Source: an uncultured virus (IMG/VR IMGVR_UViG_3300035034_002688) (taxonomy: Duplodnaviria > Heunggongvirae > Uroviricota > Caudoviricetes). Taken from it: DNA of 64,000 nucleotides. Shown here piece after piece: positions 11-27,946 of this stretch; position 1 is the stretch's first letter; the number at the start of each line of letters is the position of its first letter. The stretch lies in IMG/VR virus record IMGVR_UViG_3300035034_002688; one strand, given 5' to 3'. Both the position numbers and the translations under genes were made by a program. The notes below the pieces were generated by a model, which was given only the letters and a program-made list of their open reading frames with translations, did not search any database and was not told the origin of the DNA.

Positions 11-405
11 CGGGACATCCCCGCGCACGCGGGGAACACGGGTAGAACAAGAAGATGTATGAGAGGGGATCCGGGACATCCCCGCGCACGCGGGGAACAC
101 CGGACGAGCATGGGGAGACGTATTCGCCCTACCGGGACATCCCCGCGCACGCGGGGAACACTTGAAGCTGGAAGGATGCACGAGATGTGCGTGCGGGACA
201 TCCCCGCGCACGCGGGGAACACACAGGTGTGATCACAAGAGCATGTCGCCTCATCGGGACATCCCCGCGCACGCGGGGAACACGTCAAAGCTGGTCACCT
301 TTGGAGCGTGAACGGCGGGACATCCCCGCGCACGCGGGGAACACCATGACACCGACACACCCGCACTTGGTGCATCCGGGACATCCCCGCGCACGCGGGG
401 AACAC
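11..405 (-). CRISPR. CRISPR array 1 (type I-E), 7 repeats / 6 complete spacers, probably continues beyond the left window edge
   Basis: Identical 29-bp repeat GTGTTCCCCGCGTGCGCGGGGATGTCCCG (minus strand) at 11, 72, 133, 194, 255, 316, 377; 61-bp period, 32-bp spacers; hairpin CCCCGCG/CGCGGGG typical of I-E repeats. Confidence 0.98.
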
Positions 406-524
406 TCTTCAAATGTTCAAGCCTTCGGAAGTGTACCTAACCCCCTGTATTCGCTCAGGAATTCTGTTGGCATGGGGTACACCGTTTTACTTTACCAAAT
501 CGTACCCTGCGGTACAAGCCTGAA
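406..524 (-). promoter_or_regulatory. Leader of CRISPR array 1
   Basis: Relatively AT-rich non-coding stretch between the cas8e/cas11 stop and the first repeat; IHF-like ATACAGGGGGTTA ends 32 nt before the repeat. Confidence 0.75.
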
Positions 525-2732
525 TCAGGAGGCCTTCTTGGTGGGGGCGCGGTAGTAGGTGCGCGTCCACTCCATCTGCGTCTGAGAGCCCCAGGTGAGG
601 AGGCTCAGGATGAGGTCGTTGGCGTCGGCACCCTGACCCTCAATGCGTCCGAGGACGTTGCGGAGCTGGCGCCAGTGGCCGTTCAAGGTGCCTCCCGAAC
701 ACAGGCGCTCGAACGAGCGCTCCTTGATGTCACGAGACTGCGCGAGGACGCGCGCGACGGGGCGGTTGCCCTTGAAGCCGGTGGGCTTGAGGCCCGCGAG
801 CAGGACCGCCAGGAGGAACACGCGCTCCTGCAACTCGGGGGCGTTCTCACCAAGGTTACGCTCCACCACCTTCTCCAGGGCCTTCTCCAGCAGGATGGCG
901 GGGCGCATGTAGCGTACGTCCTGGAGGTTCTTGGCGCGAGAGAGCGCGACGCGGCCGGAGCCCTTGTCGTGGTGGAGGTTGCGCCACCACTTGTGGACCA
1001 CGGAGAGGATCTCATCCTTGTGGGCGTATACGATGTTGTTCATGGGGTTCTTCTCTCTCTTGGTGGAGGTGCCGCAGAGTTTGAGGAGCTGCTTTTCGAG
1101 CCCGGCTCGTTCCCTCACGGCGGATGTGATGGTGCGGGTGTTCATGCGCGATTTGCGAGTGACACGGCCTCCAACGAGGGAGTCGAAGATCGTGAGCGCG
1201 GTGGTCGCGAGGAGGCGCTTGTAGGGCGTATAGACCATCTCCTCAAGCTCCTCCCGGTTGGTCGTGAGCTTGACCTTGGCGAGCGCGTCGTATGCAGCCT
1301 GTTCGGTGTGTGACCACAGCTCGGAGTTGTTCCGGCCTCCCAGGCAGGCGACCTTCGCGCGGAGCACCTTATCCACCTCGGACGTGAGCTTGACCAGCGC
1401 CCCGAAGGTGTCCTCATCACGCAGAGCCTGTGAGCCCTCGAAGATGAAGATGTACTTCTCGAAGAAGCTCACCGTCTTGCCCGCAAACATGTTGAATCCG
1501 AAGACACGCAGCGGGGGAAGCCCTCCCCATACCTCATCCCAATGCTCCGCGACCTCATCGTACAGGAAGGCCTTGCGCTTGGTGTGGGTGATGATTGGGG
1601 GCGTGTGGAGGGTCTCGGAGTAGGCGTGGGAACCCAGAACGTTCCACGTGCGCCTGTTGGTGACGGTCTGCACAGCGCGGACATCTTTCACATCTTTGGG
1701 GGTCCACTTGCCGTTGACGCCCATCGTCTTGAGGTTCTTGAGGGTGGTGGCGTTGTTGGGGAGCTGCCAGACACCCGACATGGGGATGCACTGACGAGAC
1801 CCCGGCAGACCTTCCCACTTCTCGGACTGCGCTGTGTAGCGCTGCCGGTTGCCCCAGGGCTGCGCATCCACGTAGTCCAGGAGCCCGTCCTCATCCGGCT
1901 CCGGCAGGACCCACTCACGCGTGAGGTGCCAGAACGCGGTCAAGGGGTGGTAGTCCAGGTCGTGAGCGCGCCACCCCTCGATCTGACTCTCTTCGACCCA
2001 GGGGAACTCGAACTCGGGGACGGTCTCCTGTCCCCACAGAGCGTTGATTTCAGGTTCAGTGAGGATGTTGTTGAGGACCTCCTCGCAGAGGTCGCGGCCG
2101 CTGAAGACGTACCACAGGCTGCCGTTGTTTCCGTAGCCGGGTCGCGATGTGCCACGTGAGAACTTGTTCCCCGCGTCCATGCGAAACTCGGCCGCCAGGA
2201 TGAACGCGATGGCGTCCCCAGGCGTCAGACGCTGCCGGGGATCACGGCCCAAGTCCATGCTGAAGGGGAGCGGCCGCGTGACCTTCTCCGAGTCGAAGTC
2301 GAAGCCTGAGGAGGAGGACCCCAGCGCGTGCGTGTTGAAGCGGTAGCGGCCTATCTCAGTGGCGCACGGCAGGTCGGACTTCTTGATCTTTCTGATATCT
2401 TCGGTCCACTCGCGCAAGGCGGGCGTGGCCTGGAACGCACGGTACCCCGGCCCGTAGACGTCGAAGAAGTCTTCCTCACTCAGAAAGCGCTTCTTGAAGT
2501 CGAGGTTCTCGCCGCGCGTCAGGTGCATCTCGACCCACTCGTCGTCGTCCTTGGGCGCGGCCACCGTCTGGACCAGTGCCTGAATGAAGTGTCGGACGCC
2601 CTCATTCATTACGGAGTGGGGGTAGTCGAGCTTGAGGCCGGGTTCCGTGAACTCGTGCGGTCGGATGAGCTTGGACTTTCCCGTGGCGTCCTGAACCCGA
2701 ATCCAAGCGTCGGTCATGAGATTGAGTGACAT
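525..2732 (-). CDS. cas8e: Cas8e (Cse1) fused in frame to a C-terminal Cas11 (Cse2)-like domain
   Basis: N-terminus MSLNLMTDAWIRV typical of Cse1; last 172 aa from Met at 1043 (KWWRNL..GSGRVALSRAK...RSFERL...LILSLLTW...EWTRTYY) resemble Cse2; lies next to cas5e and the array. Confidence 0.8.
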   Translation of the reverse strand: MSLNLMTDAWIRVQDATGKSKLIRPHEFTEPGLKLDYPHSVMNEGVRHFIQALVQTVAAPKDDDEWVEMHLTRGENLDFKKRFLSEEDFFDVYGPGYRAFQATPALREWTEDIRKIKKSDLPCATEIGRYRFNTHALGSSSSGFDFDSEKVTRPLPFSMDLGRDPRQRLTPGDAIAFILAAEFRMDAGNKFSRGTSRPGYGNNGSLWYVFSGRDLCEEVLNNILTEPEINALWGQETVPEFEFPWVEESQIEGWRAHDLDYHPLTAFWHLTREWVLPEPDEDGLLDYVDAQPWGNRQRYTAQSEKWEGLPGSRQCIPMSGVWQLPNNATTLKNLKTMGVNGKWTPKDVKDVRAVQTVTNRRTWNVLGSHAYSETLHTPPIITHTKRKAFLYDEVAEHWDEVWGGLPPLRVFGFNMFAGKTVSFFEKYIFIFEGSQALRDEDTFGALVKLTSEVDKVLRAKVACLGGRNNSELWSHTEQAAYDALAKVKLTTNREELEEMVYTPYKRLLATTALTIFDSLVGGRVTRKSRMNTRTITSAVRERAGLEKQLLKLCGTSTKREKNPMNNIVYAHKDEILSVVHKWWRNLHHDKGSGRVALSRAKNLQDVRYMRPAILLEKALEKVVERNLGENAPELQERVFLLAVLLAGLKPTGFKGNRPVARVLAQSRDIKERSFERLCSGGTLNGHWRQLRNVLGRIEGQGADANDLILSLLTWGSQTQMEWTRTYYRAPTKKAS

Positions 2733-2773
2733 GGTGTGTCTCGTAGGTAGAGAGGGGAGGTGGGGAGGCGCGC

Positions 2774-3484
2774 TCAGAGCGTGTGCATGTGGGCGCTAAA
2801 CTCGCGCCGCACCTTGTGGGACCCTTGACGGGTCAGATCGTGGGGCACATCACGACGGAAGGTTGACCGTCGGCTACCTTCGAGGCCAAAGTCTTCATCC
2901 CAGAACACCTGTCCCGGCACCACGGTTCGGTCAAGGTAGTAGAAGCTACTCGCCACGGCCTCCTCCAGACACTCACGCGGCGTGGTGGACTGTAGGACCC
3001 GTGGATTGAGAGGCGCGCTTGGCGGACAGCTCTTGCGGCCAAAGTAGATAGGCCAGTAGGGACGCTGGAGCGCCGCGATGATACCGTCGACGTCCTCGTC
3101 GGGTACCTGGAGCAGGACCACCCAGGTCTGGTCCTGGAGGTAGTACCTCTCCGAGGTCAGGGAGTCCGTCTTGGGGCTTTGCGGGTCCAGCTCCTCCTGG
3201 CGCGTGGTCACGTAGCCCTTGAAGCAGCGGATGAGGTGGTAGTCTCGAAGCGGCGGGGGGCTCACCGAGGCTCCCTCAAGCTGGAGCTGGACGCACGCCA
3301 TCTTGATGGTGTTTGCCAGCCTCTGGTGGTGAGCCTGATCGTCACGCTCGATGCCTTGCGCGCACGCGATCATCCCGAGTATGGCCGATTTCGTCGGGCT
3401 CTGGTCCGTCGTGCGCAGCGCCGCGCGCGCCGCGTTTCCGAAGCTCATGAGAGGGGCTCGAATGTCGCAGGCGAGTGTTTGCAT
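2774..3484 (-). CDS. cas5e: Type I-E Cas5
   Basis: APLMSFG...RTT..SPTKSAILGMIACAQGIER, RYYLQD, IYFGRKSCPPS motifs; start MQTL at 3484 preceded by AAGGAGG. Confidence 0.93.
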   Translation of the reverse strand: MQTLACDIRAPLMSFGNAARAALRTTDQSPTKSAILGMIACAQGIERDDQAHHQRLANTIKMACVQLQLEGASVSPPPLRDYHLIRCFKGYVTTRQEELDPQSPKTDSLTSERYYLQDQTWVVLLQVPDEDVDGIIAALQRPYWPIYFGRKSCPPSAPLNPRVLQSTTPRECLEEAVASSFYYLDRTVVPGQVFWDEDFGLEGSRRSTFRRDVPHDLTRQGSHKVRREFSAHMHTL

Positions 3485-3495
3485 AGGTACCTCCT

Positions 3496-3538
3496 TTGTG
3501 GTACTCAAAAGATACCACAAGGTTCAAGATGGGGTCAA
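3496..3538 (-). promoter_or_regulatory. sigma70-like promoter for cas5e-cas8e/11 with inverted repeat
   Basis: TTGACC-N18-TATCTT with TGTGG extension; arms TTGTGGTA (3496-3503) and TACCACAA (3513-3520). Confidence 0.6.
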
Positions 3539-3548
3539 GTGGTTCGAT

Positions 3549-4280
3549 TCAGAGGGCCACAAGGGCGGCGGCGGGCTTGAGAAGGACAAGGCCGGCCCCG
3601 AAGGCCTTGCCCCGACCGATGCCGTTGCGCCACAGGGTCACGAACTTCTCGGGGTCGGTGACCTCGACGCGCGCCTCAAGCTGCACGAAGTCCATCGTAA
3701 TGGGGTTGCGCCGTCCCACGCCCTGCTCGGAGAACACGGGGGTCAAGGCGGTGACCCTGTGCAGCTTGAAGCCGCCGTCCTCCGAGCGCCTCTCAAGCCA
3801 CTCGAAGAGGAGGGCGTCGAGGTCGCGAGGCGTCTCCCCATTCGCTTCGCACATGAGCTTCTCGTAGGTCTGGAGACCCAAACGCTTGGAGCGCCCCTTG
3901 GGCACGATCCGCTCGTCACGGGTACAGACGGTGGCGTTGACCCATGCTCGGAGGTCGAGGCCGGCACCCATGTGCATCGTGGGCTGCTCGATCGTCTTGG
4001 TCAGAAGCTTCACGTAGCCGTGAGGGTCCGAGGGGATCTCCGTGGACTGGATGTAGAAGGAGGAGCCCTTGAAGGGGGTGAACATGAAGGGTCGGTCTTT
4101 GCGGTCCTCCACCGGGTCGAAGAGGTCCCAGACGAACTGGTGTGCGGTGTAGATGCCCTCGGACGTGTAGCGGGAGAGCTGCTCGATTCCCTTGGCCGTG
4201 AAGGTGGCGCGTGAGATGTAGAGAGGGGTCGAGGTGGGGGGTGTGGTGGTGTTGAACGGGATGTTGACTTGCGTGCTCAT
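3549..4280 (-). CDS. cas6e: Type I-E Cas6 endoribonuclease
   Basis: HQFVWDLF, LRAWVNAT, WLERRSEDGGF and C-terminal Gly-rich loop GIGRGKAFGAGL; start MSTQ at 4280 with GGAG RBS. Confidence 0.93.
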   Translation of the reverse strand: MSTQVNIPFNTTTPPTSTPLYISRATFTAKGIEQLSRYTSEGIYTAHQFVWDLFDPVEDRKDRPFMFTPFKGSSFYIQSTEIPSDPHGYVKLLTKTIEQPTMHMGAGLDLRAWVNATVCTRDERIVPKGRSKRLGLQTYEKLMCEANGETPRDLDALLFEWLERRSEDGGFKLHRVTALTPVFSEQGVGRRNPITMDFVQLEARVEVTDPEKFVTLWRNGIGRGKAFGAGLVLLKPAAALVAL

Positions 4281-4290
4281 TGATAACTCC

Positions 4291-4351
4291 AAAAATACCC
4301 CCGCACGAGGCGGGGAGGTTGAGAGGGGACCCCCGCGTGAGCGGGGAAAGG
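4291..4351 (-). repeat. Degenerate CRISPR-repeat copy plus second GC hairpin between cas7 and cas6e
   Basis: 4351-4325 reads CCTTTCCCCGCTCACGCGGGGGTCCCC (array 2/3 repeat lacking 2 nt in the 3' handle); 4318-4291 reads CCTCCCCGCCTCGTGCGGGGGTATTTTT. Confidence 0.75.
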
Positions 4352-4356
4352 GGCAC

Positions 4357-5703
4357 TCACTCGGCGGCGGCGGTCTCGGAGGCCTCCACGGCGATACCGA
4401 GCGTCTGGTAGATGGCATCCACGATGTCATCCAGGGTCGTACACACCTCGCCGCCCGACTCCAGGGCCGTGAGGTCCTTGGTCGAGGACCACGTGAGGAC
4501 ACGCTCATGGTCGACGCCCACGCGGGTCACGATGCGGTTGTGGTGGTCCTCCAGGCGCGTGAGGGCCATCTGAAGAGGATCGTTGGACTCCACAGGCACC
4601 AGGAACGCGTCGGTGTACTGAGTGTTCTGGGTCTCCCCGATGGTCACCATCAGGTAGGGGGACGGGATGCTCGCAGCCATCGTGGACTGGTTACCCGAGG
4701 GGCGCACCATCACGAGAGCCTTGACGAAGGCGTGGATGGTCTCACGGAGGAGGTCCTCCTGACCGCTCCCGAAGCGGCGAGCCAGCTCACCGATGTGGAG
4801 GCCCACGTAGGCGTAGTTGACGCCCGAGGTGAAGCTCTTGTGGCCCATATGCGAGGCGCCCGTATTGGAGTTGAAGCAGTCCTGAGCCGAGAAGAAGTCG
4901 TCCTCCTCGGGCATCACGCCGACGCCGATGGTGTGCGCGAACTGGACGCAGGCCGCTTCATTGTCCTGTGCGAGCTGCGCGACCATGCGGCCGAAGAGGC
5001 TCACGTCGACGTTGGGCATCCTCGTGAGGTCCGTGAAGCTCTTCGCGGTCTCAGTCAGGCTCTCGAAGACGACGGAGGGGTCCGTGAAGTCCAGACCCAC
5101 CAGCGCCTCGAAGCCCAGCGTCAAGACCTCCTGCTCCGCCTGCTTGAGCTTGATGGCCGAGCCGAACATGCGGCCGTCCTTCTTGTCGCTCTTTTTGTTC
5201 TTCTTCTTCTTGGTGTCTCCTTCGGACTCGTTCGACTCGTCGTCGAGAGCGTCCTTGGTCGAGTACGGCGTGATGCCTCCCTCGGCGTACAGGGTACCAT
5301 CCGCGATGAGGCCCTTGAGGAGCGTGAGAAGCGCCGCTTCGGTCTTCTTGGTGAGCTTGGCGCCCTTGAAGCACTGCGTGAAGAAGTTCGGCGTCGTCAT
5401 CATGTAGGCGAGCAGCGCGGCGGCTCGATACGACCTCTCAGCCTCCTGGCCCGCCTCGACGGCCTTCTCACTCTTGAAGACCAGGAACGATCTCGTGTTG
5501 TCGCTCATGACCTTGCGCTGACGGAGCACATCGAAGTGCATGGAGGCACGAATCGCCGCCTTCTCCGCTTGGCTGGAGATGCGGTAGCGCATGGCGTTCC
5601 CGAAGAAGGAACTCTTGGGGTTACCCGCGTCATCGCGGTTGATGTTGCTGGGGGGCAGCACACCGAGCATGTGGAACTGGAGCTTTGTTTTCACGTTCAT
5701 CAT
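4357..5703 (-). CDS. cas7: Type I-E Cas7 (Cse4) backbone
   Basis: PPSNINRDDAGNPKS..FG..RYRISSQAEKAAIR and VDVSLFGRMVA motifs. Confidence 0.95.
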   Translation of the reverse strand: MMNVKTKLQFHMLGVLPPSNINRDDAGNPKSSFFGNAMRYRISSQAEKAAIRASMHFDVLRQRKVMSDNTRSFLVFKSEKAVEAGQEAERSYRAAALLAYMMTTPNFFTQCFKGAKLTKKTEAALLTLLKGLIADGTLYAEGGITPYSTKDALDDESNESEGDTKKKKNKKSDKKDGRMFGSAIKLKQAEQEVLTLGFEALVGLDFTDPSVVFESLTETAKSFTDLTRMPNVDVSLFGRMVAQLAQDNEAACVQFAHTIGVGVMPEEDDFFSAQDCFNSNTGASHMGHKSFTSGVNYAYVGLHIGELARRFGSGQEDLLRETIHAFVKALVMVRPSGNQSTMAASIPSPYLMVTIGETQNTQYTDAFLVPVESNDPLQMALTRLEDHHNRIVTRVGVDHERVLTWSSTKDLTALESGGEVCTTLDDIVDAIYQTLGIAVEASETAAAE

Positions 5704-5773
5704 GTCTGGACTCTCACTACAGTGGGTAAAAGGACCTTCGAGCTTTCAGAGGCTTCGTGCCTCGACGGAAACG

Positions 5774-5830
5774 ACACTAACTCCGATGTTAGAGCAGTGT
5801 CAAGCGGTTTCTTTAACGCTTGACACTGCT
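5774..5830 (-). promoter_or_regulatory. Putative cas7 promoter overlapped by a 14-bp perfect inverted repeat
   Basis: AGCAGTGTCAAGCG (5793-5806), 10 nt, CGCTTGACACTGCT (5817-5830); minus strand TTGACA followed by TAGTGT. Confidence 0.6.
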
Positions 5831-5850
5831 GTGCGGTATGAAAAAAAGAC

Positions 5851-8481
5851 CTAGAGGACTTGGAGTCCCAGGATGTGGTCGTAGATGAGGGTGACGGATA
5901 CCGGGGCGCCCTTGGGGGAGAGCTTGGTCATGTTGACCCTCCACGCGTCGGCGGGTGCGCTGAGGTCGTCCACGGTCACGATCAACACGGAGTCGGTAGA
6001 GTGGAACGGGAGCTGCGCCAAAAGTTCGTGCTGCTCCGGGCTCGGGTCGAGCCGCTCTCCGGCCATGTACATGGGGATAGCGATGCCAGAGGCCTTGATG
6101 CCTCCGTTGTGGATACGCCGGAGTCGATCGCCGTCAACGAAGTGGACCTCCCAGATGCACGTAGGGATGGCGTCTCGGGTGTGTATGGCCACGTTCTTAC
6201 CCCACTTGCTGACCGACTCACGGTAGCTGCGGGTGAAGTCGAGAGACCCCAAAACAGCCGATGCTCGCGTCTCCTGGTCACGGGCGGTGGAGGCTTGGTG
6301 CGAGCGGGCCAGACCGGCCGGAATCAGTGCGTTGATGTCGTCCAGGATCTCACGCGTATGGGTGGGAAGCTCCCAGGACCTCAAGGCACACATCGCCGCG
6401 CTGGCGTACACACGGCCTGCATCCCCATAGACGTAAGATGTCCCCCCATGATGAGGGGAGCCGCTGAGCCATTGAGCGTGTGGAGTCCCGGCCAAGGAGG
6501 GCGTGAACAGGCCCATCTCGACGTGCACCTCTTCCCCACTCTCGTGACGCAGGACGCGACCCGAGCGCTGAATCAGGAGGTCGGCCTCGCATACATCGGA
6601 GACGCCCCAGTCAAAGCTGACATCCAAAGACTCCTGGAGCACCTGCGTGCATATGACGATGTAGCCCTCACGCTCTTGGGGATCGGCGCCCTTACCGAAG
6701 CGACGCAGCACCTCGGCGTCACGTACCTCACGGTGTCCGACCGTGTAGCGAGAGTGCAGCAAGAGCACTCGGTCATACCCTGACAAGGCTTCATAGGCCG
6801 CACAGGCGGCGCGCACGGTGTTTCGGAACCACACCACCGCCTCACCTCGGTTGGCTCGCCGGTGCAGCTCTTCCACGATGGGGTCGAGCCCACGCCGATC
6901 CTCTTCAAAGACGTTCCAGTGCACGTGCCGGATCTGGTGTGCGTCCACCGAGACCACGTTGATGTGGCCGCTGGAGCTGACGTGCGTGAGCGCGGGCAAG
7001 GGGACATCGGGGAGGTCTACAACCTCTCCTCGATACGCGGAGGCGAGCGCGCGGCGTGTCTTGGAGTCGCAGGTGGCGCTCATGGCGATCACGGGCTGTC
7101 CCTGTCGCCCGCAGTAGGCGAGCAGGTTACAGAGCAGAGGGAGCATGTGAGCGTCGAAGGCGTGGACCTCATCTATCAGAAGCACGGTACGGGTGAGCGC
7201 GCTCAGTCGCATGGGCGCAAAGTATCGCCCGATCGTCGCCAGGAGGGCTTGGTCTATTGTGCAGACATTGATTTGCGAGAACATGCTCTGTCGGGAGGAC
7301 TTGAGCAGCCACTCGGAGGCGCTAATCAGGCCTCCATTCGAGTTGCGTTGAGCCTTCCACGGCTTGAATTCACTTCGAGTCGAGTGAATGAGCGCCATCG
7401 TGACGGGCTCATCAAAGGTTGCCTCCGTCCAGGCGTGCGCACGCCCGTAGAGGCCGTTGGCGGTAGCGCGAGTAGGCAACGCCAACGTCAGCCCTTTGTA
7501 GTCGCCATCACGCATCATCTGACGCGCGAGCGCGAGCCCTACCTCCGTCTTACCCGCCCCCGTAGAGGCCTCGATGAGGACAAACCCGTCCGCAGAACTC
7601 AAGAGGGTCTCAGCACCTACCTGGAGAGGCCGAGGTTCCCAGGTATCGTCGAGGAGACCGCTCCAGAAGGAGTAGGTGGTAGAGAGGGGCGTGTAGAGGA
7701 TCTCCACGTCTGTACACGCCCTCTCCGCTTGAGGCTGTGCGATGGTCTCCCAATAAGCTCTCGGGTCCATACGCGCGCCACGCAGCGGGAAGTATTCAGG
7801 CGTGGAGCCCAGCCAATCCGAGATCATCCCGACGCCCGCCAGGAGGTAGCTCGCGAAAGGCAGGTCCGGAGGGTTGGAGTAGTCGCCACGCATGGGTCCA
7901 AATACGCCCTGGATGATTTCGGAGAGGTACGCAGTCAGGCGCTCGTCGCACCCAGGCACTCCCCACTGGAGCTGAGCCGTACGTGGGGTGGCGCCTTCTC
8001 GCTTCTGATGAGGCAAGGCGTAGCCGTGATGGCTCAGCGCGCTATGCAGCAGCGTCGTGATGTGGCGTCGTTCCTGACGCCCAGTACCGCTCTTGAGGTA
8101 CTCCCGGATCACGTTCCTGCGTTCCCATCCCACCAGATCGTGACGGGCTTCGGTCTCACGCGCACCATCAGGCTGGGGGGTGATATCCAGGAGCGTACAG
8201 GCGGGTGCGCTTCGAGCCTGGAAGTTGTCCGTGAGCTTACCGATGTCATGGCAAGCGTAGAGCATGGGGAGGTCATGCCACAGGTCGTACATGCTCACAC
8301 CCAAGGCCTCCGACAAGGGACGCCACCAACGCTCCTCGTGCCTGAGCAAGTGATTCACGACCGCCGCGACGTCGAGGTTATGATACACCACGCGGTGAAT
8401 GGCAGTCACGGCCTCTTGTGAGCCGGGAGGCTGGTCTGTCTTGGCCCAACAGTCCCACATACCGATAGGTTTGGTCGTCAT
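5851..8481 (-). CDS. cas3: Cas3 HD nuclease-SF2 helicase
   Basis: WAKT, HNLDV, CHDIGK, SHHG, SDWLGS (HD domain); EASTGAGKTE, LPTRAT, DEVH, SAT, LHSRY, TQV..SLD, QRSGRVLRH (helicase). Confidence 0.97.
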   Translation of the reverse strand: MTTKPIGMWDCWAKTDQPPGSQEAVTAIHRVVYHNLDVAAVVNHLLRHEERWWRPLSEALGVSMYDLWHDLPMLYACHDIGKLTDNFQARSAPACTLLDITPQPDGARETEARHDLVGWERRNVIREYLKSGTGRQERRHITTLLHSALSHHGYALPHQKREGATPRTAQLQWGVPGCDERLTAYLSEIIQGVFGPMRGDYSNPPDLPFASYLLAGVGMISDWLGSTPEYFPLRGARMDPRAYWETIAQPQAERACTDVEILYTPLSTTYSFWSGLLDDTWEPRPLQVGAETLLSSADGFVLIEASTGAGKTEVGLALARQMMRDGDYKGLTLALPTRATANGLYGRAHAWTEATFDEPVTMALIHSTRSEFKPWKAQRNSNGGLISASEWLLKSSRQSMFSQINVCTIDQALLATIGRYFAPMRLSALTRTVLLIDEVHAFDAHMLPLLCNLLAYCGRQGQPVIAMSATCDSKTRRALASAYRGEVVDLPDVPLPALTHVSSSGHINVVSVDAHQIRHVHWNVFEEDRRGLDPIVEELHRRANRGEAVVWFRNTVRAACAAYEALSGYDRVLLLHSRYTVGHREVRDAEVLRRFGKGADPQEREGYIVICTQVLQESLDVSFDWGVSDVCEADLLIQRSGRVLRHESGEEVHVEMGLFTPSLAGTPHAQWLSGSPHHGGTSYVYGDAGRVYASAAMCALRSWELPTHTREILDDINALIPAGLARSHQASTARDQETRASAVLGSLDFTRSYRESVSKWGKNVAIHTRDAIPTCIWEVHFVDGDRLRRIHNGGIKASGIAIPMYMAGERLDPSPEQHELLAQLPFHSTDSVLIVTVDDLSAPADAWRVNMTKLSPKGAPVSVTLIYDHILGLQVL

Positions 8482-8744
8482 GTAGCTCTCAGCTTGGCGA
8501 GATGAATGGCGTGCTTGTATTTGGCCGATTCCACGTAGGTGGAGCTTCCCAGGAGCTTCGAGCCTCCTGACGAAGAGAAGAAGCGGGCGAGGTAGGGGGG
8601 GTTCTTCTTGTAGGAGGTCTCGGAGCGGTGAATCTCCATACGACCCTCGGGGACCTCACATGTGAAGTAGCGCGTAAGCCCAGCGGGACCGTGAACTTCC
8701 CATTGCAGCGTCTTGGAGAGCTTCTCGGCAGCCGTGATTTCCAT
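8478..8744 (-). CDS. Hypothetical protein (88 aa) translationally coupled to cas3
   Basis: Start MEIT at 8744 overlaps upstream stop (TGATG); its stop overlaps the cas3 start (ATGA). Confidence 0.65.
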   Translation of the reverse strand: MEITAAEKLSKTLQWEVHGPAGLTRYFTCEVPEGRMEIHRSETSYKKNPPYLARFFSSSGGSKLLGSSTYVESAKYKHAIHLAKLRAT

Positions 8745-9112
8745 CAAGCCACCTCTACGGGCGCGCCGCACAGGTGGCAGAACTGCGAGGCGGGGATCAG
8801 CTCAGTCCCGCAGTTGTGGCAATACACGGCCTTACGGGGACCCTCCACCTCGAACTCCCCGAGCAGGTCGAGGTACGTATCATCCCTGCATCCCGCCAAG
8901 GAGAGTCGAATGCCGGGGAGGAGGTCGTCGTGGTGGTAGTCATGACCCTTGTGCAACAAGGTCGCGTTGTCTGCGTTGGGGGGACCCTGGAGGTCATTGA
9001 CCCTACGCCCTCCAGGCTTGAAGACCCATAGCCGCACGGGGTACCCTCGATCAAACTCCAGCTCTCCGGTGCGACCTGTTGTGGATGCGACTTCATACTC
9101 ATGATGTTTCAT
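8744..9112 (-). CDS. Hypothetical protein with C-terminal zinc ribbon
   Basis: AGGAGG RBS; CHNCG...FCHLCG at C-terminus. Confidence 0.75.
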   Translation of the reverse strand: MKHHEYEVASTTGRTGELEFDRGYPVRLWVFKPGGRRVNDLQGPPNADNATLLHKGHDYHHDDLLPGIRLSLAGCRDDTYLDLLGEFEVEGPRKAVYCHNCGTELIPASQFCHLCGAPVEVA

Positions 9113-9115
9113 ATC

Positions 9116-9162
9116 TCAACCTCCTGTGGTCTGTATATACCACAGGAGGTTGAAGCTGTAAA
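9116..9162 (-). promoter_or_regulatory. Promoter of the orf-orf-cas3 unit inside a 15-bp perfect inverted repeat
   Basis: TTTACA-N17-TATATA; arms TCAACCTCCTGTGGT (9116-9130) and ACCACAGGAGGTTGA (9139-9153). Confidence 0.7.
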
Positions 9163-9495
9163 AGGAAAACCCCACGTGTGTGGGGAAGGGGCGCGTAACT
9201 GCGGGGGAGGTCGTAGGAGCAGGGGAACATCCCCGCGTGTGCGGGGAAGGGCAACTGTATCAACTCAGCGTCCGGGAGTACGTGGGAACATCCCCGCGTG
9301 TGCGGGGAAGGGTTTTTGGGCGATCTTGCCCCTTTGGATGATCGGGGAACATCCCCGCGTGTGCGGGGAAGGGTTGAGCGTGTCGGCGGCGTCGTCGAGG
9401 GCGTAGGGGACATCCCCGCGTGTGCGGGGAAGGGGCGCTGACGCGCTCCCCCAAGACCGTGATCGTGGGGACATCCCCGCGTGTGCGGGGAAGGG
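9162..9495 (-). CRISPR. CRISPR array 2, 6 repeats (last degenerate) / 5 spacers
   Basis: Repeat CCCTTCCCCGCACACGCGGGGATGT(T/C)CCC (minus) at 9223, 9284, 9345, 9406, 9467; degenerate trailer at 9162; 32-bp spacers. Confidence 0.97.
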
Positions 9496-9645
9496 TCTGT
9501 GCCAAGAAGTCACATGCGTTAGATCGCGTAAGTATTCGGTTTTCAAAGACTTCTCAGATCCAGCGCCGTTCGGTGCCACCCTTGAGCGACCTCTCCGAGG
9601 TCCTTATGGTAACCTTGGAGAGGGAGACCTGTCAAGCCTCTTTCA
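9496..9645 (-). promoter_or_regulatory. Leader and promoter of array 2
   Basis: Homologous to the array 3 leader; TGAAAGAGGCTTGACA...TACCAT promoter-like element. Confidence 0.8.
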
Positions 9646-9666
9646 CAGCCTCGAAGAACACGGGGA

Positions 9667-9704
9667 GGGGACATCCCCGCGTGTACGGGGAAGAGTCTGT
9701 GCCA
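9667..9704 (-). repeat. Solitary CRISPR repeat with 9 nt of leader junction
   Basis: TGGCACAGA + CTCTTCCCCGTACACGCGGGGATGTCCCC, 171 bp upstream of array 2. Confidence 0.85.
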
Positions 9705-9842
9705 TACGTGTGAACTTGAGCATGGGGAAGTCCTCAAAGAAGAAGTAGGGGTCCACGGATTTTCGAGGGTAGCGAAAAAAGCAGCATTGGTAACCTCTTT
9801 TGGCAGGGATACCACAACCACCTCCCCCACGTCAAGGGGGTA

Positions 9843-10439
9843 TTACGTGCTCCAACGTGCGCCGTGGAACGTGTGCTCCACATCTCGTCCAGCCTGATCC
9901 GGGAAGACGGGATGCTGGGCAGAGTAGCCCAAGGTCAGGAGCTTGAGGTAGGCCATGTAGCAGGGGTTGAACAGGACCTTGATGTCGAAGTGGTTGAGCC
10001 CTGACCCCTTACACTTCTGCTCCAGCGTGGAGATGTAGGGACACGTGATCTCCGTGCTGTCCCAGTTGTATCCTTCCACGAAGGCGGAAGCGGCGGCATC
10101 CTCCGCCCACTGTCGAACCTTGGTGAGGGTGTCCAGGGGGCGATCACGAACTCGTCGGTGCTTGATCGCCTCCTCAAACACCAGATCGTATTCACGCTGG
10201 AGGTAGTCCTGAAGACGCAACCCCTTCGAGGCGGAGGTACGACGTGGGCGAGCCCCAGCACCAAGAGCTGCTTCACGTGCAAGCGTGAGGGTCTCCTCCT
10301 TGGTTCGGTAGCTCGGATCTTCGGCCGTGATCAGGCCCGCCTGGATGGCGGTCGTAATCGCGACGCGGTAATGCGCGGTCTCTGGCTTTGTATCGTAGAA
10401 CTCGACAGCTTCCAGGACGTCTTGTGCGGTGGGCTTCAT
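9843..10439 (-). CDS. Hypothetical protein
   Basis: 198-aa ORF with GGAG RBS; no recognised motif. Confidence 0.7.
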   Translation of the reverse strand: MKPTAQDVLEAVEFYDTKPETAHYRVAITTAIQAGLITAEDPSYRTKEETLTLAREAALGAGARPRRTSASKGLRLQDYLQREYDLVFEEAIKHRRVRDRPLDTLTKVRQWAEDAAASAFVEGYNWDSTEITCPYISTLEQKCKGSGLNHFDIKVLFNPCYMAYLKLLTLGYSAQHPVFPDQAGRDVEHTFHGARWST

Positions 10440-10492
10440 TTGAAGGCTCCAGGTTGTAGATAGAGTTAAGGATCGCGCTCTTGTTGCTTGCC

Positions 10493-10867
10493 TCAGGATT
10501 TACTTCCAATGCGTAGGGCGGTACCCGAGCGCGCGTTGCCACCCACGCTCAAGCATGTGAGAGAGGTACCCGCGCGTACATCACCTGCGATGCCCTCCCC
10601 TACAGTCACGCTGCCTCCCGCCTTCACCTCTCCCGTCACACTGCCCCTTTCCACGTGTACGGACCCCACATCGCCAGGGAGGGTCACGCGGAACTCTTCA
10701 TTGTCCGTGACCACCTCTCCATGCACTTCATCATCGACGAGGATTGTGTACCGTACGACGACCTTCACGCCCTTCCGCTCTTCGCGCGTCCCACCTCCAA
10801 TAGAAATGTGCGCGCCCGAGATGGTAGAGTTGGAGATGTTCCCCGAGATCGTGATGTTCTTGCTCAT
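10493..10867 (-). CDS. Small Gly/Val-rich beta-solenoid (bactofilin/polymer-forming-like) protein
   Basis: Repeats GDVGSV, GSVTGEVKAGGSV, GDVRAGTSL, GNARSG; AGGAG RBS; upstream TGTGGTAC promoter. Confidence 0.6.
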   Translation of the reverse strand: MSKNITISGNISNSTISGAHISIGGGTREERKGVKVVVRYTILVDDEVHGEVVTDNEEFRVTLPGDVGSVHVERGSVTGEVKAGGSVTVGEGIAGDVRAGTSLTCLSVGGNARSGTALRIGSKS

Positions 10868-11000
10868 GTGCCTTTCTCCTGAGTGTGAAACGGGTCAGAT
10901 AGGATGTACCACAGCACATGAGCGATGGTAAAGCACGAAAAAGCCCCTCCGTGCGGCAGCTCTTCAGCTACGACATGGAGGGGCTTTGAGGGGTCGATCT

Positions 11001-11360
11001 TCAGACGCTCAGGGAGGCCTTGCCGTAGTACGAGTTGGACATCGCGGACGCCTTCCAGCCCCACTCGTCACGGCAATACTGCAAGAACTGAGACCGCTCC
11101 AGAACCACCTCTTCCTTGACAGACATGCTGAACATGTCGATCACCTCCTCGTAGTCCTTGACATGGCTCGTAGGGCACTGACCCTCAAGCCTCTTGAGCT
11201 TCCGGGGGAAGGACGTGAGGTCCGAGACATCCATCTCCTCACACGTCTCCTGGAGGTCCTCGCGCCACAGCTTGAGCGCCTCCAGGTAAGTCTTCTCGTG
11301 CGTCTCCATGTTAGCTTCGAGTCGCTCCAGCAACTCCTCCGTCTTGACCGTAACCTGCAT
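11001..11360 (-). CDS. Hypothetical phage protein
   Basis: Likely start MQVTVK at 11360 after GGTGGAG; helical, charged 119 aa. Confidence 0.7.
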   Translation of the reverse strand: MQVTVKTEELLERLEANMETHEKTYLEALKLWREDLQETCEEMDVSDLTSFPRKLKRLEGQCPTSHVKDYEEVIDMFSMSVKEEVVLERSQFLQYCRDEWGWKASAMSNSYYGKASLSV

Positions 11361-11457
11361 CTCTCCACCTCTGTACATGCCCATCTTGATATCCTCGATC
11401 GCGAGTGAGCGTCGAAGGTAACTCAGACATGCCTCGCCGTCAAGTCGGGGGGTATCT

Positions 11458-11627
11458 TGAAAGAGGCTTGACACATCCGGCGTGTTGCGGTTACAGTAAT
11501 GAAGCCTGGAGCGGTGGAGAGCGGTGGAGAGCGGTGGAGAGCGGTGACCTTGTTTGGCACCGAACCTGAGAAGTCTTTGAAAACCGAATACTTACGTCAT
11601 TCCGCTCATGTGACTTCTTGGCACAGA
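11458..11627 (+). promoter_or_regulatory. Leader and promoter of array 3, containing (GCGGTGGAGA)x3.6
   Basis: TGAAAGAGGCTTGACA...TACAGT; leader blocks CTGAGAAGTCTTTGAAAACCGAATACTTACG and CATGTGACTTCTTGGCACAGA identical to the array 2 leader. Confidence 0.8.
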
Positions 11628-12227
11628 CCTTTCCCCACGCACGTGGGGATGTTCCCATGTAGCAAGACATGTAGTAGGAGGCGCTGGGCCTTTCCCCACG
11701 CACGTGGGGATGTTCCCTACAGGAGTTCCTTGGGGGCTATCTGAGGGGGCCTTTCCCCACGCACGTGGGGATGTTCCCGTGGGGCGGTCTGGATGAGGCA
11801 GGCATCCTCACCTTTCCCCACGCACGTGGGGATGTTCCGCGTCCGCATCAAGGGCCGCAACCTGGGTGGGCCCTTTCCCCACGCACGTGGGGATGTTCCC
11901 TCACCTCGAAGGGTCCCCGCCCCCTCAAAGTCCCTTTCCCCACGCACGTGGGGATGTTCCCTTCCTCCAGGATCTCAGTGTCTTCGGGAACGTCCTTTCC
12001 CCACGCACGTGGGGCTGTTCCTGTTCCTGTTCCTGTTCCTGTTCCGCCTTGGCTCCCAGGACCATCGCTCGTGACGAGCCCTTCCCCGTACACGCGGGGG
12101 TGTTCCCTCTGTGCTACCGCAGCGTCGACCTTGGCCCCCTTCCCCGCACACGCGGGGATGTCCCGTCCAAAATCGTCCGTGGTCCCCCGTGAGGCCCTCT
12201 TCCCCACGCACGTGGGGACTTTGTTCC
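11628..12227 (+). CRISPR. CRISPR array 3, 10 repeats / 9 spacers, degenerate distal end
   Basis: Repeat CCTTTCCCCACGCACGTGGGGATGTTCC(C/G) at 11628, 11689, 11750, 11811, 11872, 11933, 11994; variant repeats at 12079, 12137, 12197. Confidence 0.97.
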
Positions 12228-12897: not shown

Positions 12898-13166
12898 CCC
12901 CCCGGAGACCTAATCCAGATGGAGTATGTTTCCGTCTTTGAGGGCCAACAGGTCAAGACCTGCCAGGAGGGCCTCAAGGTCTACATGCTCGGGGAGAGTC
13001 AAGACGAACATCTCTTCAACCTCCTGTAGAAGAGAGTTCTTGGGAAGACGCTTTGTGATTTCGTTCCGCGCTTCGTCCCGCCTTTTGGCGAGCTGGGCCG
13101 GAGTCTCCTCTTCAAGGGGGGGTCGGAGGGCGAAGAGATGTCTGCTCAGTGCGGCCTGCGAGTGTG

Positions 13167-21222: not shown

Positions 21223-21286
21223 AATAATCTTCTTGTAAGAGCGGGTGAGTGTTGACTACCAAGACCCCCCTTCGGAGAATCCCCAC

Positions 21287-22327
21287 ATGTCCCACGTCAA
21301 GCTGGCTCAGCGTGTCGCGTACCTCTACTCCCACCGCCACGCCGCGCAGTTCAAGTATGCGGGGCCTCTCACCGACGTGAGCAAGCTCCGGTACCAAGCG
21401 GTGTTCCTGATGGGGCCTGCGGGGTCGGGCAAGTCGTACCTCGTGGACGGCATGTATATGAAGTACATGCCCGGAGCCCCTCCGGAGGGCGTCAAGAGAG
21501 AGAACCTGTCCAAATACTTTGAGCGTGATCTTAGCGAGGCCGAGCGAGGCCTCACCAACGTCACCTTTGACAAGGCCGTGGAGTCGCTCCGTTCTCGGGG
21601 ATTCGAGATTGAGTTGGCCCAAGGAGGAGGAAGCGCGCGTATCCCCTTCCGCCTCTACACCTACGACGAGACGGGAGGTGAGGCCCTGATCGACCCTTCG
21701 GACTATGGTAACGCCCTCCCCAAAGACATTTACCAGGAGGTCAAGGAGCTGGAGTCTGTGATCTATCGCGCTCCCAAGCGTGAGCTGCCCTCATACTGGC
21801 GTCAGGTGAACCCGGACCTCTACAAGGAGGAGCTTATAGGTTACCGAGAGGGTCAGCCGGGCTTTGTCCATGAGATGTCTTCTCAGATGTCGAAGGGCTA
21901 CTTCGCGGCCGCTCTTGAGTCCGGAGATCCGATGGTCGTGGACGGTACGGGCACGAACCTGCGCAAGATGACCCGGCAGATCGCGGAGGCGAAGGCCGAG
22001 GGATATCAGACCAGCGTGGTCTACGTCTACGTACCTTTGACCATCTCCCTTCTGCGCAACGCAGCCAGGGCGCGCAAGGTAGACCCCTTCGTCGTCTTGA
22101 ACCAGTGGAAGGCTGTACACAAGAACTACCCCAAGCTCCGTGGCTTCGCAGACAAGGCCAAGCTCATCGACAACTCCAACCCTTCCTACGATGCCAAGCT
22201 GTACCAGACCAAGGGGGAGGGTGTAGACCAGTTCATGCGTCAGAAGACCAACATGTCCCTCGCGGAGTTCGTCATGGCCGAGGCGCCACAGGAGCGCTCG
22301 GTGCTCAAGAAGTTGGGCGCTCTCTGA
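21287..22327 (+). CDS. Zeta-toxin-like / AAA_33 P-loop kinase
   Basis: AVFLMGPAGSGKS, VNPD, VVDGTG, SLLRNAARARKV, IDNS motifs; likely start MSHVK after GGAG (alternative GTG at 21245). Confidence 0.78.
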   Translation: MSHVKLAQRVAYLYSHRHAAQFKYAGPLTDVSKLRYQAVFLMGPAGSGKSYLVDGMYMKYMPGAPPEGVKRENLSKYFERDLSEAERGLTNVTFDKAVESLRSRGFEIELAQGGGSARIPFRLYTYDETGGEALIDPSDYGNALPKDIYQEVKELESVIYRAPKRELPSYWRQVNPDLYKEELIGYREGQPGFVHEMSSQMSKGYFAAALESGDPMVVDGTGTNLRKMTRQIAEAKAEGYQTSVVYVYVPLTISLLRNAARARKVDPFVVLNQWKAVHKNYPKLRGFADKAKLIDNSNPSYDAKLYQTKGEGVDQFMRQKTNMSLAEFVMAEAPQERSVLKKLGAL

Positions 22328-22672: not shown

Positions 22673-22783
22673 TCGGACACCTCTCCGGCAGTCTCTCTGG
22701 CCCCCAGGAGTACCTGAGAGGGCGGTCAAGAACTCTCCGCCACCACTCCTATACCACAAGGAGAGTTTGTCGTAAAAACTTAC

Positions 22784-23212
22784 TCAGGTAGACCAAACGA
22801 CGTCGTACCCCATCACGTAGTAGGAGTAGAACCGAAACACCTCCTTTCTCTTCCCCTGTCGGTAGTGGTCCCCGGCCCACGCATCCGCAGATCGGTCCTG
22901 TGGAAAACTCGAATGCTCCAGCAGCTTCGTGCACATCTCAAGCGTCATAAGGTATCCGCGTCCGTTGCTCCAGCCCTTCTCGCAGTCTCTCCAGTAGGTG
23001 TGGTCAAACACACCCTCTTCACCCTTGTCCAGCTCTGCCAGGACCTCCCTCAGGATCTGGATGCACTGTTCATGGTCACAGTCCTCCAACAGCGGGTAGC
23101 CCAGCGCCTTGCCCATCGAGAGCGCCGAACCTCTATGCACGCTCATACTGCTGATAGGCTCCCTCGCGTCTACAAGGCTGCCCGTCGTCTCAACGTCTAC
23201 TGATCTCGCCAT
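22784..23212 (-). CDS. Hypothetical protein
   Basis: GAGG RBS; TTTACT/TGTGGTATA promoter at 23273-23244. Confidence 0.7.
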   Translation of the reverse strand: MARSVDVETTGSLVDAREPISSMSVHRGSALSMGKALGYPLLEDCDHEQCIQILREVLAELDKGEEGVFDHTYWRDCEKGWSNGRGYLMTLEMCTKLLEHSSFPQDRSADAWAGDHYRQGKRKEVFRFYSYYVMGYDVVWST

Positions 23213-23278
23213 GTCCTCACCTCTTGAAGTGGTTGTTGCCTTCCTTATACCACAAGAGAGAGAGGCGAGTAAAGAGAC

Positions 23279-23845
23279 TCAGTTCACGATACCGTCGTGC
23301 GCGTGATCCATGACCGAAACGCTCCAGAACATGAGCAGCGTGTGGAAGTCCGGGAAGACGGTGACGAACACCGGCTCGGCCTGAGCGTGGACGCTCTGGA
23401 GGATACGCGCGCCTGACTTGAAGGGGAGAGGGTCGCTGGGGAGGAGACGAAGCGTGAGCCGGGTGAAGACCTCACGCACTTCAACCTTTTGAAGGGGAAC
23501 CGTGGTCTCCTCATACAGGACGGTCATGTGGTTGTCCTGGTGGCGCAGCATTGGGACGTGTGGGGTCCCGGCATCTTCGCACGGCTTGAGCAGCATGGAG
23601 CGCATGTTCATGTCCGAGACCGCGCTGTTGAGCAGGTTGAGCTTGTTGAGGTACAAGAAGGCCTGCTGGTAACGGTGCACGTGTTGATCAAAGATCTCCA
23701 TGAAGTCTTCGCTGGAAGCCTCCTGGAAGTTTGGCAGCGTGTGTAGAGGGATCTCCTGGAGCTTGTCCACCTGCTGCGAGTAGTTCTCTCGCCACCGCTC
23801 CAGGGTCTGTCTCATCACCGGGTTCTCGTACAGCATCTTCGTCAT
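23279..23845 (-). CDS. Hypothetical protein
   Basis: 188-aa ORF with GGAG RBS. Confidence 0.7.
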   Translation of the reverse strand: MTKMLYENPVMRQTLERWRENYSQQVDKLQEIPLHTLPNFQEASSEDFMEIFDQHVHRYQQAFLYLNKLNLLNSAVSDMNMRSMLLKPCEDAGTPHVPMLRHQDNHMTVLYEETTVPLQKVEVREVFTRLTLRLLPSDPLPFKSGARILQSVHAQAEPVFVTVFPDFHTLLMFWSVSVMDHAHDGIVN

Positions 23846-27553: not shown

Positions 27554-27946
27554 TCAGGAAGCCTGCTGTGTGGTCTTGGAGGGGGTGTAGGACTTCTGGA
27601 GGACCTTCCACAGCTCCCGGCCCCTCTCCAGGGTCACGATGGTGGAGCCGCGCACTTGACCTCGCGTGTCGAACTTGCGCATCTGCACCAGCTCACCACG
27701 CGCCTCGAACTCGACGCGGGGGTACTGCACGTTCACGCCGAGCTTGGCCTTGAACGTGTGGACCGTTCCGCCCTCCGAGTTGAGGTACCCCTCACGTGCG
27801 TTCAGCCTCTCCCGCTGCGCCCTGAGGATTTCCCGGCTCTCGTCGAGGGCCTTGTCCACTTCGGGAACCTTCTCCACCGCGTTCGCAATGGCGGCGCCGA
27901 TTCCGATCATCATCCCTACGTCCTTGCTCCAGCTCTTCGTATCCAT
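27554..27946 (-). CDS. Hypothetical protein
   Basis: Start MDTKS after GGGAG; TTTACG-N17-TATATA promoter at 28017-27989. Confidence 0.7.
   Translation of the reverse strand: MDTKSWSKDVGMMIGIGAAIANAVEKVPEVDKALDESREILRAQRERLNAREGYLNSEGGTVHTFKAKLGVNVQYPRVEFEARGELVQMRKFDTRGQVRGSTIVTLERGRELWKVLQKSYTPSKTTQQAS

Follow-up and report, generated by a model that had tools for sequence, protein, structure and literature searches.

The DNA considered here, a stretch of 64,000 nucleotides (the window) that comprises bases 48134–112133 of the 125,429-bp IMG/VR record IMGVR_UViG_3300035034_002688 from an uncultured tailed virus, carries near its left end a group of cas genes among CRISPR arrays, and it raises the question of whether a phage operates its own CRISPR-Cas system of type I-E with no adaptation genes beside it. 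The gene set and its order, the intact catalytic motifs, the phage context, the anatomy of the arrays and the conservation of the whole in a second, complete phage genome (hereafter the relative) are directly observed. The explanation that accounts best for them, which we hold to be probable, is a CRISPR-Cas system of I-E descent that is functional and confined to interference, residing in a lineage of huge phages of lake water with genomes of about 370–440 kb and inherited vertically within it. Positions below are those of the window unless they are given as contig positions, which refer to the whole record.

The cas genes lie on the minus strand in the order cas3, cas7, cas6e, cas5e and cas8e::cas11, and the family models bear out both this order and the fusion of the last gene, as a first-pass annotation made from the letters of the window alone had listed them. 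The canonical I-E order is cas3-cas8e-cas11-cas7-cas5-cas6-cas1-cas2. The cas3 gene (5851–8481) encodes 876 amino acids (aa), with an HD nuclease fused to a superfamily 2 helicase that matches Cas3_HD (E 2.7e-27) and cas3_core (190.7 bits against a cut-off of 102.45), and when aligned with the I-E Cas3 of PDB 4q2c (E 2e-52) it displays all of the H, HD, HH and D motifs together with GxGKT, DEVH and QxxGR, so that the earlier claim of intact nuclease and helicase motifs holds. The product of cas7 (4357–5703; 448 aa; Cse4/CasC family) was matched by Pfam Cas_CT1975 (E 5.6e-58) and by TIGR01869 just over its cut-off (182.1 against 178.05 bits), that of cas6e (3549–4280; 243 aa) by TIGR01907 (72.4 against 45.2), and that of cas5e (2774–3520; 248 aa) by TIGR01868 (142.1 bits against 68.95). 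For cas6e the gene identity given at first stands and the start does not, since the listed open reading frame (ORF), 3549–4508, was shortened to the ATG at 4280, which has GGAG 7 nt upstream, by comparison with the relative and from the sequence itself. Aligned to E. coli CasE, the encoded protein has a histidine in the column of His20, which we take to be the catalytic residue, and retains the glycine-rich loop. The cas8e::cas11 gene (525–2732; 735 aa) matches Pfam Cse1 over residues 4–500 (67.6 against a cut-off of 24.7, E 1.6e-18) and the Cse2 model TIGR02548 over residues 579–729 (38.0 against 28.5). Four of the six I-E signature models thus score above curated NCBIfam cut-offs (Cas7, narrowly, with Cas5e, Cas6e and Cse2), and I-E models are the best or only match for all six interference families. 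Judged by these family assignments, the locus is a type I-E-like system that departs from the canonical subtype in its gene order, in having no separate cas11 and in the absence of any detected adaptation module.

Cas11 is not a separate gene in this phage, and the Cse2 domain forms the C-terminus of the Cas8e ORF. A profile built from four fusion proteins reached E. coli CasA (E 7.4e-7) and, over the full length, the Thermus Cse2 of PDB 2zca (E 1.4e-7). A methionine, Met564, stands at the domain boundary where the Cas11 part starts, and the corresponding M553 of the relative has AAGGA upstream; a methionine occupies this column in only two of the four aligned fusion proteins. The fused architecture is rare. 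The word-index search of 5.8 billion proteins returned the fusion protein itself as the sole match, and HMMER over 1.84 billion representatives gave 70 proteins at E <=0.001, only three of which are likewise fused (726, 718 and 688 aa; 25–30% identity to the phage fusion over the alignment), the remainder being of the ordinary kinds, either Cse1 at about 500 aa (E 3e-16 at best) or Cse2 at about 170 aa. All four fused representatives are mutually 25–30% identical. No full-length bacterial relative was found among 185,579 species genomes in a scan seeded on one N-terminal Cas8e peptide pattern, which yielded 15 loci, 13 of them matching only the first 66–116 residues and one matching residues 1–281, with at least 11 of the 15 from Alphaproteobacteria. 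The close bacterial homologue that the first-pass annotation had named as speaking against a phage variant was not encountered, the species-genome matches from this single seed motif covering mostly about 100 N-terminal residues of Cse1.

A similar distance from bacterial I-E was observed for Cas7, which is about 90 aa longer than the bacterial I-E Cas7 proteins of about 350 aa among its matches. A total of 871 proteins matched it at E 1e-10, and the alignment was full-length in one other, a protein of 463 aa near the Cas7 of the relative. In an unrooted neighbour-joining (NJ) tree of 62 sequences, comprising every second match ranked 3–120 (59 bacterial) and three of phage type, and so representing the best matches to the query rather than the whole diversity of I-E, the phage-type Cas7 proteins form a clade with a long stem, recovered in 100 of 100 bootstraps. 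Identity between phage and bacterial Cas7 averages 27% (maximum 32%), whereas the bacterial proteins share 41% on average. These values, the family matches and the syntenic locus of the relative uphold the earlier description of the locus as a divergent, phage-borne derivative of I-E with a permuted gene order.

The phage that carries the locus is a huge tailed phage of lake water, from a lineage with genomes of about 370–440 kb. The contig covers roughly between a quarter and a third of the genome (27% complete by CheckV), and the identical fusion protein is encoded on contigs of 365,960 and 373,477 bp. The phage surroundings reported at first were found again, with genes for baseplate J, PolA, primase, DnaB with an intein, SNF2 helicase, PhoH and very large tail-fibre-like proteins elsewhere in the window. 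The 48 kb left of the window contain mostly ORFs without a family, a 1242-aa SLT-domain protein and another array; neither flanking cas1 or cas2 nor housekeeping genes, which had been named as observations that would tell against a phage origin, were found there, no housekeeping-type domain being detected by Pfam among the 33 ORFs scanned. The stretch was also found in three lake-water metagenome runs from three separate studies, one of which may have yielded the record and none of which was listed as RNA, and in run X1 a single contig of 8,881 bases covers it from the leader of the first array to inside the second with zero differences.

The relative, found in IMG/VR, is 437,490 bp long with direct repeats at its ends, and CheckV rates it 100% complete. 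Among its genes, PHROGs recognised the large subunit of a terminase (E 2e-25), a portal protein (1e-27) and a head protease, and it has UvsX, topoisomerase II and a clamp with its loader besides; the Pfam virion-gene models Terminase_6C and Phage_sheath_1 gave zero matches, the terminase and portal being then recovered by PHROGs. It was the only further relative found in the IMG/VR scans made with the fusion and with a Cas3 alignment, and the metagenome scan gave only the larger contig of the present phage. Of the 126 contig ORFs, 45 match the relative in order, the CRISPR locus stands at the syntenic place, and there the genes follow the identical order cas3, cas7, cas6e, cas5e, cas8e::cas11 with the same fusion. 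The shared place and order indicate that the locus is phage-borne and older than the split of the two phages. Cas identity between them is 27–49% (42% for Cas5e), and 36 other orthologues have a median of 63%.

The arrays exhibit the dimensions usual for I-E. Array A1 (11–405, minus strand) has seven repeats in the window (GTGTTCCCCGCGTGCGCGGGGATGTCCCG) and six complete 32-nt spacers, and one more repeat, the eighth, which varies slightly, lies 50 bases to the left of the window; A2 (9162–9495, minus strand) has six repeats (CCCTTCCCCGCACACGCGGGGATGTYCCC) and five spacers of 32 nt; and A3 (11628–12225, plus strand) has ten repeats (CCTTTCCCCACGCACGTGGGGATGTTCCC), the last three variant, and nine spacers. 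A1 and A2 are thus co-directional with the cas genes, and A3 lies on the opposite strand. The earlier count of three arrays and 20 complete spacers (6 + 5 + 9) was correct for the window, and what it missed is the dispersal, since the contig holds two more arrays, A0 (contig 22770–23416) and A4 (contig 113019–113412), both outside the window, and a leader with a single repeat. In the whole contig the five arrays contain 44 repeats of 29 nt with a period of 61 nt and 37 spacers, of which 30 are exactly 32 nt long and all differ from one another, and the repeats are nearly uniform within A1 and within A3. The 7-bp repeat hairpins have folding energies from -12.8 to -14.3 kcal/mol (z -2.6 to -3.8 against shuffles), with -14.3 kcal/mol (z -2.64) for the A1 repeat. 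Several arrays end in degenerate repeats, and terminator-like scores were obtained for the last repeats of A2, which is degenerate, and A3. The genes cas7 and cas6e are separated by 76 nt, within which lie two repeat-like hairpins (4291–4350, minus strand), the second followed by a T run and terminator-like. One odd A3 spacer of 56 nt holds a (GTTCCT)n run (12023–12046), which recurs directly after the last A0 repeat (contig 23417–23428); the run resembles a reiteration of the repeat 3' end GTTCC and gave spurious matches to replication-protein genes of unrelated phages. In the three lake-water runs, short contigs also link A1-type repeats to spacers other than those of the window and may derive from other arrays of this genome or from strain variants.

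The relative shows the same dispersal, with 64 repeat matches on one strand against one on the other strand and one in a control, making up at least 13 arrays or lone repeats. Its arrays also stand between cas7 and cas6e (six repeats), between cas6e and cas5e, and after cas8e::cas11, the first of these positions being that of the two repeat-like hairpins in the present phage, and array positions are only partly syntenic between the two genomes. In the relative, at about 123,514 and at 127,051–127,694, tRNA-like sequences are followed directly downstream by lone repeats and by a unit of two repeats, which may be co-transcribed with a tRNA cluster.

The leaders fall into two classes. The class I leader of A1 (406–524, minus strand) lies between the cas8e::cas11 stop and the first repeat and ends in GAACATTTGAAGA; the class I end (ACATTTGAAGA) is present at A1, at the single-repeat leader and at five arrays of the relative. 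A0, A2, A3 and A4 share a class II leader that is about 150 nt long, has a sigma-70-like promoter and nearly identical 60 nt abutting the first repeat, and ends in TGTGAC, 4–5 nt and TG(G/T)C(A/T)CAGA. That of A2 (171 nt; minus strand, 9496–9695 as a span including a lone repeat at 9667–9695 upstream of the leader) has the promoter TTGACA-18-TACCAT at 9635 to 9606, and that of A3 (11460–11627, plus strand) has TTGACA-18-TACAGT at 11468–11497 and a 12-bp tandem repeat. These are the two best promoter matches (10 of 12 positions) in a scan of 12.6 kb, which gave 4 sites against 2.0 expected. The last 11–20 nt of both leader classes are kept between the two phages, and arrays with the same leaders stand among phage genes up to 60 kb distant. 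At contig 27560–27800, a class I leader nearly identical to that of A1, with a TTGACA promoter-like element read by eye, precedes one repeat (27752–27780) whose 3' end is degenerate, and a plus-strand gene cluster follows directly; this unit may represent an array that is empty, a site at which Cas6e processes the mRNA downstream, or an RNA decoy.

Models of Cas1 (PF01867, TIGR03638) and Cas2 (PF09707, PF09827) gave no match in the 125,429-bp contig and none in the complete relative, in a search whose controls responded in 6–7 of 14 genomes for three of the models and in only 1 of 14 for PF09707, and the absence of cas1 and cas2 first noted for the window therefore extends to both sequences. 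When the spacers of each phage were compared with the genome of the other, arrays included (37 contig spacers and 45 of the relative), there was no match of 18 nt or more. Adaptation in trans by a host I-E Cas1-Cas2 would be the simplest reading, since 30 of the 37 spacers measure 32 nt, the leader ends are conserved without an integrase, the repeats of A1 and A3 are uniform and no spacers are shared.

On the basis of homology with characterized I-E components, the steps from CRISPR RNA (crRNA) processing through assembly of the complex to interference, along with adaptation in trans and targeting, would proceed as follows. Each array would form its own transcription unit, consisting of a promoter-bearing leader, the repeats and spacers and a terminator-like last repeat. 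Cas6e would cleave the transcripts at the base of the conserved hairpin, on its 3' side, to release 61-nt crRNAs, each carrying a 32-nt guide and a 5' handle of 8 nt (ATGTTCCC or ATGTCCCG), on which Cas7, Cas5e, Cas6e and Cas8e::Cas11 would assemble a Cascade-like complex. Canonical Cascade contains two Cas11 copies, and separately translated Cas11 has been shown for I-B, I-C and I-D; here a second copy may arise by internal translation at Met564. The complex would bind matching double-stranded DNA with an R-loop dependent on a protospacer-adjacent motif, and the HD-helicase Cas3 would be recruited to degrade the target. New spacers would presumably be inserted by a host I-E Cas1-Cas2 at the conserved leader-repeat junctions, and the likeliest targets would be rival phages or other mobile elements that share the host. 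A narrower proposal, which we advance tentatively and would not call probable, is that the phages carry an I-E sub-lineage of their own, specific to phages and defined by the fused Cas8e::Cas11, the permuted operon and self-contained leader-repeat units spread over the genome (at least six in the third of the present genome that is available and at least 13 in the relative, some of them between cas genes and others beside tRNA genes), in which the two leader classes, conserved over a deep divergence, would dock host Cas1-Cas2 for loading spacers into many phage loci and the Cas6e hairpins within operons would tie the supply of crRNA, and perhaps mRNA processing, to phage transcription.

Compared with the bacterial I-E systems of E. 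coli, Thermus and Thermobifida, the phage system has six interference families matched best or only by I-E models, along with the same 29-nt repeats with a 7-bp hairpin, mostly 32-nt spacers and catalytic motifs; it differs in the permuted order, the fused cas8e::cas11, the lack of any detected cas1 or cas2, the longer Cas7 and its separate clade, the dispersed arrays each with a leader, and in being phage-encoded. Huge phages with CRISPR-Cas systems lacking Cas1, Cas2 and Cas4 are established in passages of PMC7162821 and PMC11656645, the former proposing the use of host Cas proteins and the targeting of competing phages or host genes. With those huge-phage systems (Al-Shayeb 2020, PMC7162821) the present one shares, as far as the passages describe them, a genome above 200 kb, the absence of Cas1, Cas2 and Cas4, apparently functional effector nucleases and compact arrays, but the type I example in its main text is an I-C variant with a helicase replacing Cas3 and no Cas6, unlike the system described here. 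The term I-E occurs 0 times in the main text of that paper, and neither I-E nor Cse1/Cas8e occurs in the 10 of its supplementary files that were searched. A large and a small subunit in one gene have been proposed for I-B, I-C, I-D and I-F in passages of PMC5965380; the phage protein resembles those fusions in being one ORF whose C-terminal domain, behind the large subunit, is Cas11-like, here with a methionine at the boundary, and it differs in that both halves are recognisable I-E families, Cse1 and Cse2, the passages concerned naming no I-E fusion.

Viral mini-arrays and single repeat units, as portrayed in parts of PMC11656645, are similar to the present units in being short arrays and lone repeats that are scattered and have their own promoters. 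The mini-arrays described there have 1–2 spacers, copy the host repeat and need host Cas proteins, whereas the present phage has 5–10 spacers per array, diverse repeats and its own Cascade and Cas3. The I-F system of the vibriophage ICP1, in the same parts of that review, is likewise a phage-encoded type I system with Cas3 and is used offensively; ICP1 has a complete adaptation module, subtype I-F, an ordinary genome size and a known target, the PLE island, unlike the present phage. A literature search that covered neither a 2022 survey of virus CRISPR systems in Cell, in which such loci may be listed, nor three of the Al-Shayeb 2020 supplements gave no account of type I-E in a phage, of a Cas8e-Cas11 fusion within I-E or of arrays interleaved with cas genes. 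A phage I-E system with a Cas8e::Cas11 fusion thus appears to be what is new, adaptation-less CRISPR in huge phages being already known. It extends the huge-phage repertoire to a Cas3-armed system of class 1 whose form has not been seen in bacteria, with a single-gene large and small subunit within an I-E background together with a permuted operon. The conserved leaders in an integrase-less phage make it testable how adaptation-less arrays gain spacers, the fusion of Cas8e with Cas11 would make for an I-E Cascade of five genes, which has practical interest for genome editing with type I tools, and the natural repeat variants with putative compensatory stem changes would map the tolerance of Cas6e.

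Several observations weigh against a working system derived from I-E. The Cas3 score for PRK09694, the full-length I-E Cas3 equivalog, falls below its cut-off (297.5 against 569), as does that of the Cas8e part for the equivalog TIGR02547 (41.6 against 70.05), and the margin of Cas7 above its own cut-off is narrow. Outside the contig, the genome of this phage may still encode Cas1 and Cas2, since only for the relative does the absence extend to a complete genome. The repeats of the relative differ within single arrays, which fits long drift without repeat copying and thereby disfavours frequent adaptation in that phage. On the supporting side, the pair 10:17 of the repeat stem is always paired among 85 distinct repeats of the two phages (G-C in 61, A-T in 23 and T-A in 1), which suggests that the hairpin is maintained through compensatory changes; the pattern used to search for repeats already required a hairpin with at most one mismatch, which weakens these statistics, and the switching of the pair is for that reason supportive and not decisive.

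The spacers add a further point against a working system, since no protospacer was found for any of them in the databases searched, including virus databases, as the first-pass annotation had proposed. Against their own contig (blastn-short) the 37 spacers gave chance-level matches only, with exact matches of at most 15 nt, a longest match of 21 nt with 3 mismatches and a 19-nt match that is the (GTTCCT)n run. All five arrays against INPHARED (50,697 phage records) gave only the low-complexity GTTCCT stretch and repeat-repeat likeness, and 24 nt of three leader-proximal spacers (3 of the 37) gave 0 matches in IMG/VR. The A1 repeat, sought with at most 3 mismatches, was met in 1 of 401 sampled Alphaproteobacteria, at 3 mismatches, which is uninformative on the host.

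Among the other explanations, the one that survives best is that the system serves host takeover or the regulation of phage or host transcripts, or that its dispersed repeats act as RNA decoys against a host I-E system, single repeat units and mini-arrays soaking up host Cas6e or Cascade, and we consider it improbable. It would account for the leader with a single repeat before a plus-strand gene cluster, for the lone repeats downstream of tRNA-like sequences in the relative, and for the repeat-like hairpins between cas7 and cas6e and the whole arrays between the cas genes of the relative; moreover, viral single repeat units are presented as RNA anti-CRISPRs in part of a 2024 review (PMC11656645), and phage spacers against host genes are reported in passages of Al-Shayeb 2020 (PMC7162821). 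However, both phages keep the full Cascade set and a Cas3 with intact nuclease and helicase motifs, which neither decoys nor repression need, and self-regulation by full pairing is unsupported because no spacer matches its own contig.

A decaying relic of a captured bacterial I-E locus that no longer works is a distinctly less credible explanation, and one to which we give very little weight. The missing adaptation module in the contig and the complete relative, the greater divergence of the Cas proteins relative to the other orthologues of the two phages, the degenerate terminal repeats of several arrays, the vestigial hairpin pair between cas7 and cas6e and the lack of spacer targets could all be read as signs of decay. 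Yet the five cas ORFs are full length in two deeply diverged phages, in which catalytic motifs, leaders and promoters are kept and the repeat hairpins seem to be kept via compensatory changes, and the fusion is retained in four representatives that have drifted to 25–30% identity. The explanation that the locus is not phage-encoded at all, being misassembled bacterial or plasmid DNA or host DNA beside a prophage, could draw on the record being a metagenome assembly, on array repeats that fragment the assembly graph into short contigs in the lake-water run that may be its source and on the lack of a family for most neighbouring ORFs, but it is scarcely tenable against the same syntenic locus in an independently assembled, terminally redundant and complete phage, phage genes on both sides in both genomes, the difference-free 8,881-base contig of run X1 and the same-leader arrays among distant phage genes.

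Sequences resembling the repeats of the phage arrays were also met in other replicons. Against plasmids, A1 gave only other I-E repeats in 56 records and one 28-nt identity on the Allochromatium tepidum plasmid pAt1, where a lone I-E-type repeat is identical to 24 nt of the A1 repeat and to the 4 bases on its leader side, with no array around it. This may be a plasmid-borne single repeat unit, offering at most a faint hint about the host group. In the Streptomyces phages Eklok and AxeJC (37 kb), unannotated stretches of about 90 nt at about 34.5–35.0 kb are 71% like an A2 repeat-spacer-repeat and may be mini-arrays.

Three minus-strand ORFs lie upstream of cas3. The first (8478–8771, 97 aa) overlaps the cas3 start by 4 nt and is not significantly similar to its positional counterpart in the relative, the small ORFs upstream of cas3 being not homologous between the two phages; it is followed by a zinc-ribbon protein of 122 aa (8744–9112). 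The third (9843–10439, 198 aa) is conserved in the relative, with 39% identity to the ORF found there in the same place upstream of cas3; since synteny runs through both phages as a whole, this adjacency does not count as evidence of a functional link, and a word search gave no homologue and a protein atlas gave no usable lead (best score 0.81; model predicted local distance difference test 0.60).

Elsewhere in the window, eight single-base differences separate its sequence from that of the genome record, five of them clustered at 12967–12991 and the others including 45587, 45962 and 58490, and all eight fall outside the cas genes and arrays. The DnaB-like replicative helicase (39581–42523, minus strand) is split by an intein with a LAGLIDADG homing-endonuclease domain; a phage histidine kinase with HisKA and HATPase_c domains (47866–49035, minus strand) has 55% identity to the copy in the relative; and a 360-aa protein (21245–22327, plus strand) has a Zeta-toxin/AAA_33-like kinase domain with a weak PHROG match to polynucleotide kinase. 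The SNF2 helicase ORF of 571 aa (43402–45117, minus strand) corresponds to part of a 1392-aa ORF in the relative (62484–66662), and the gap in length between the two phages represents a fusion or split difference.

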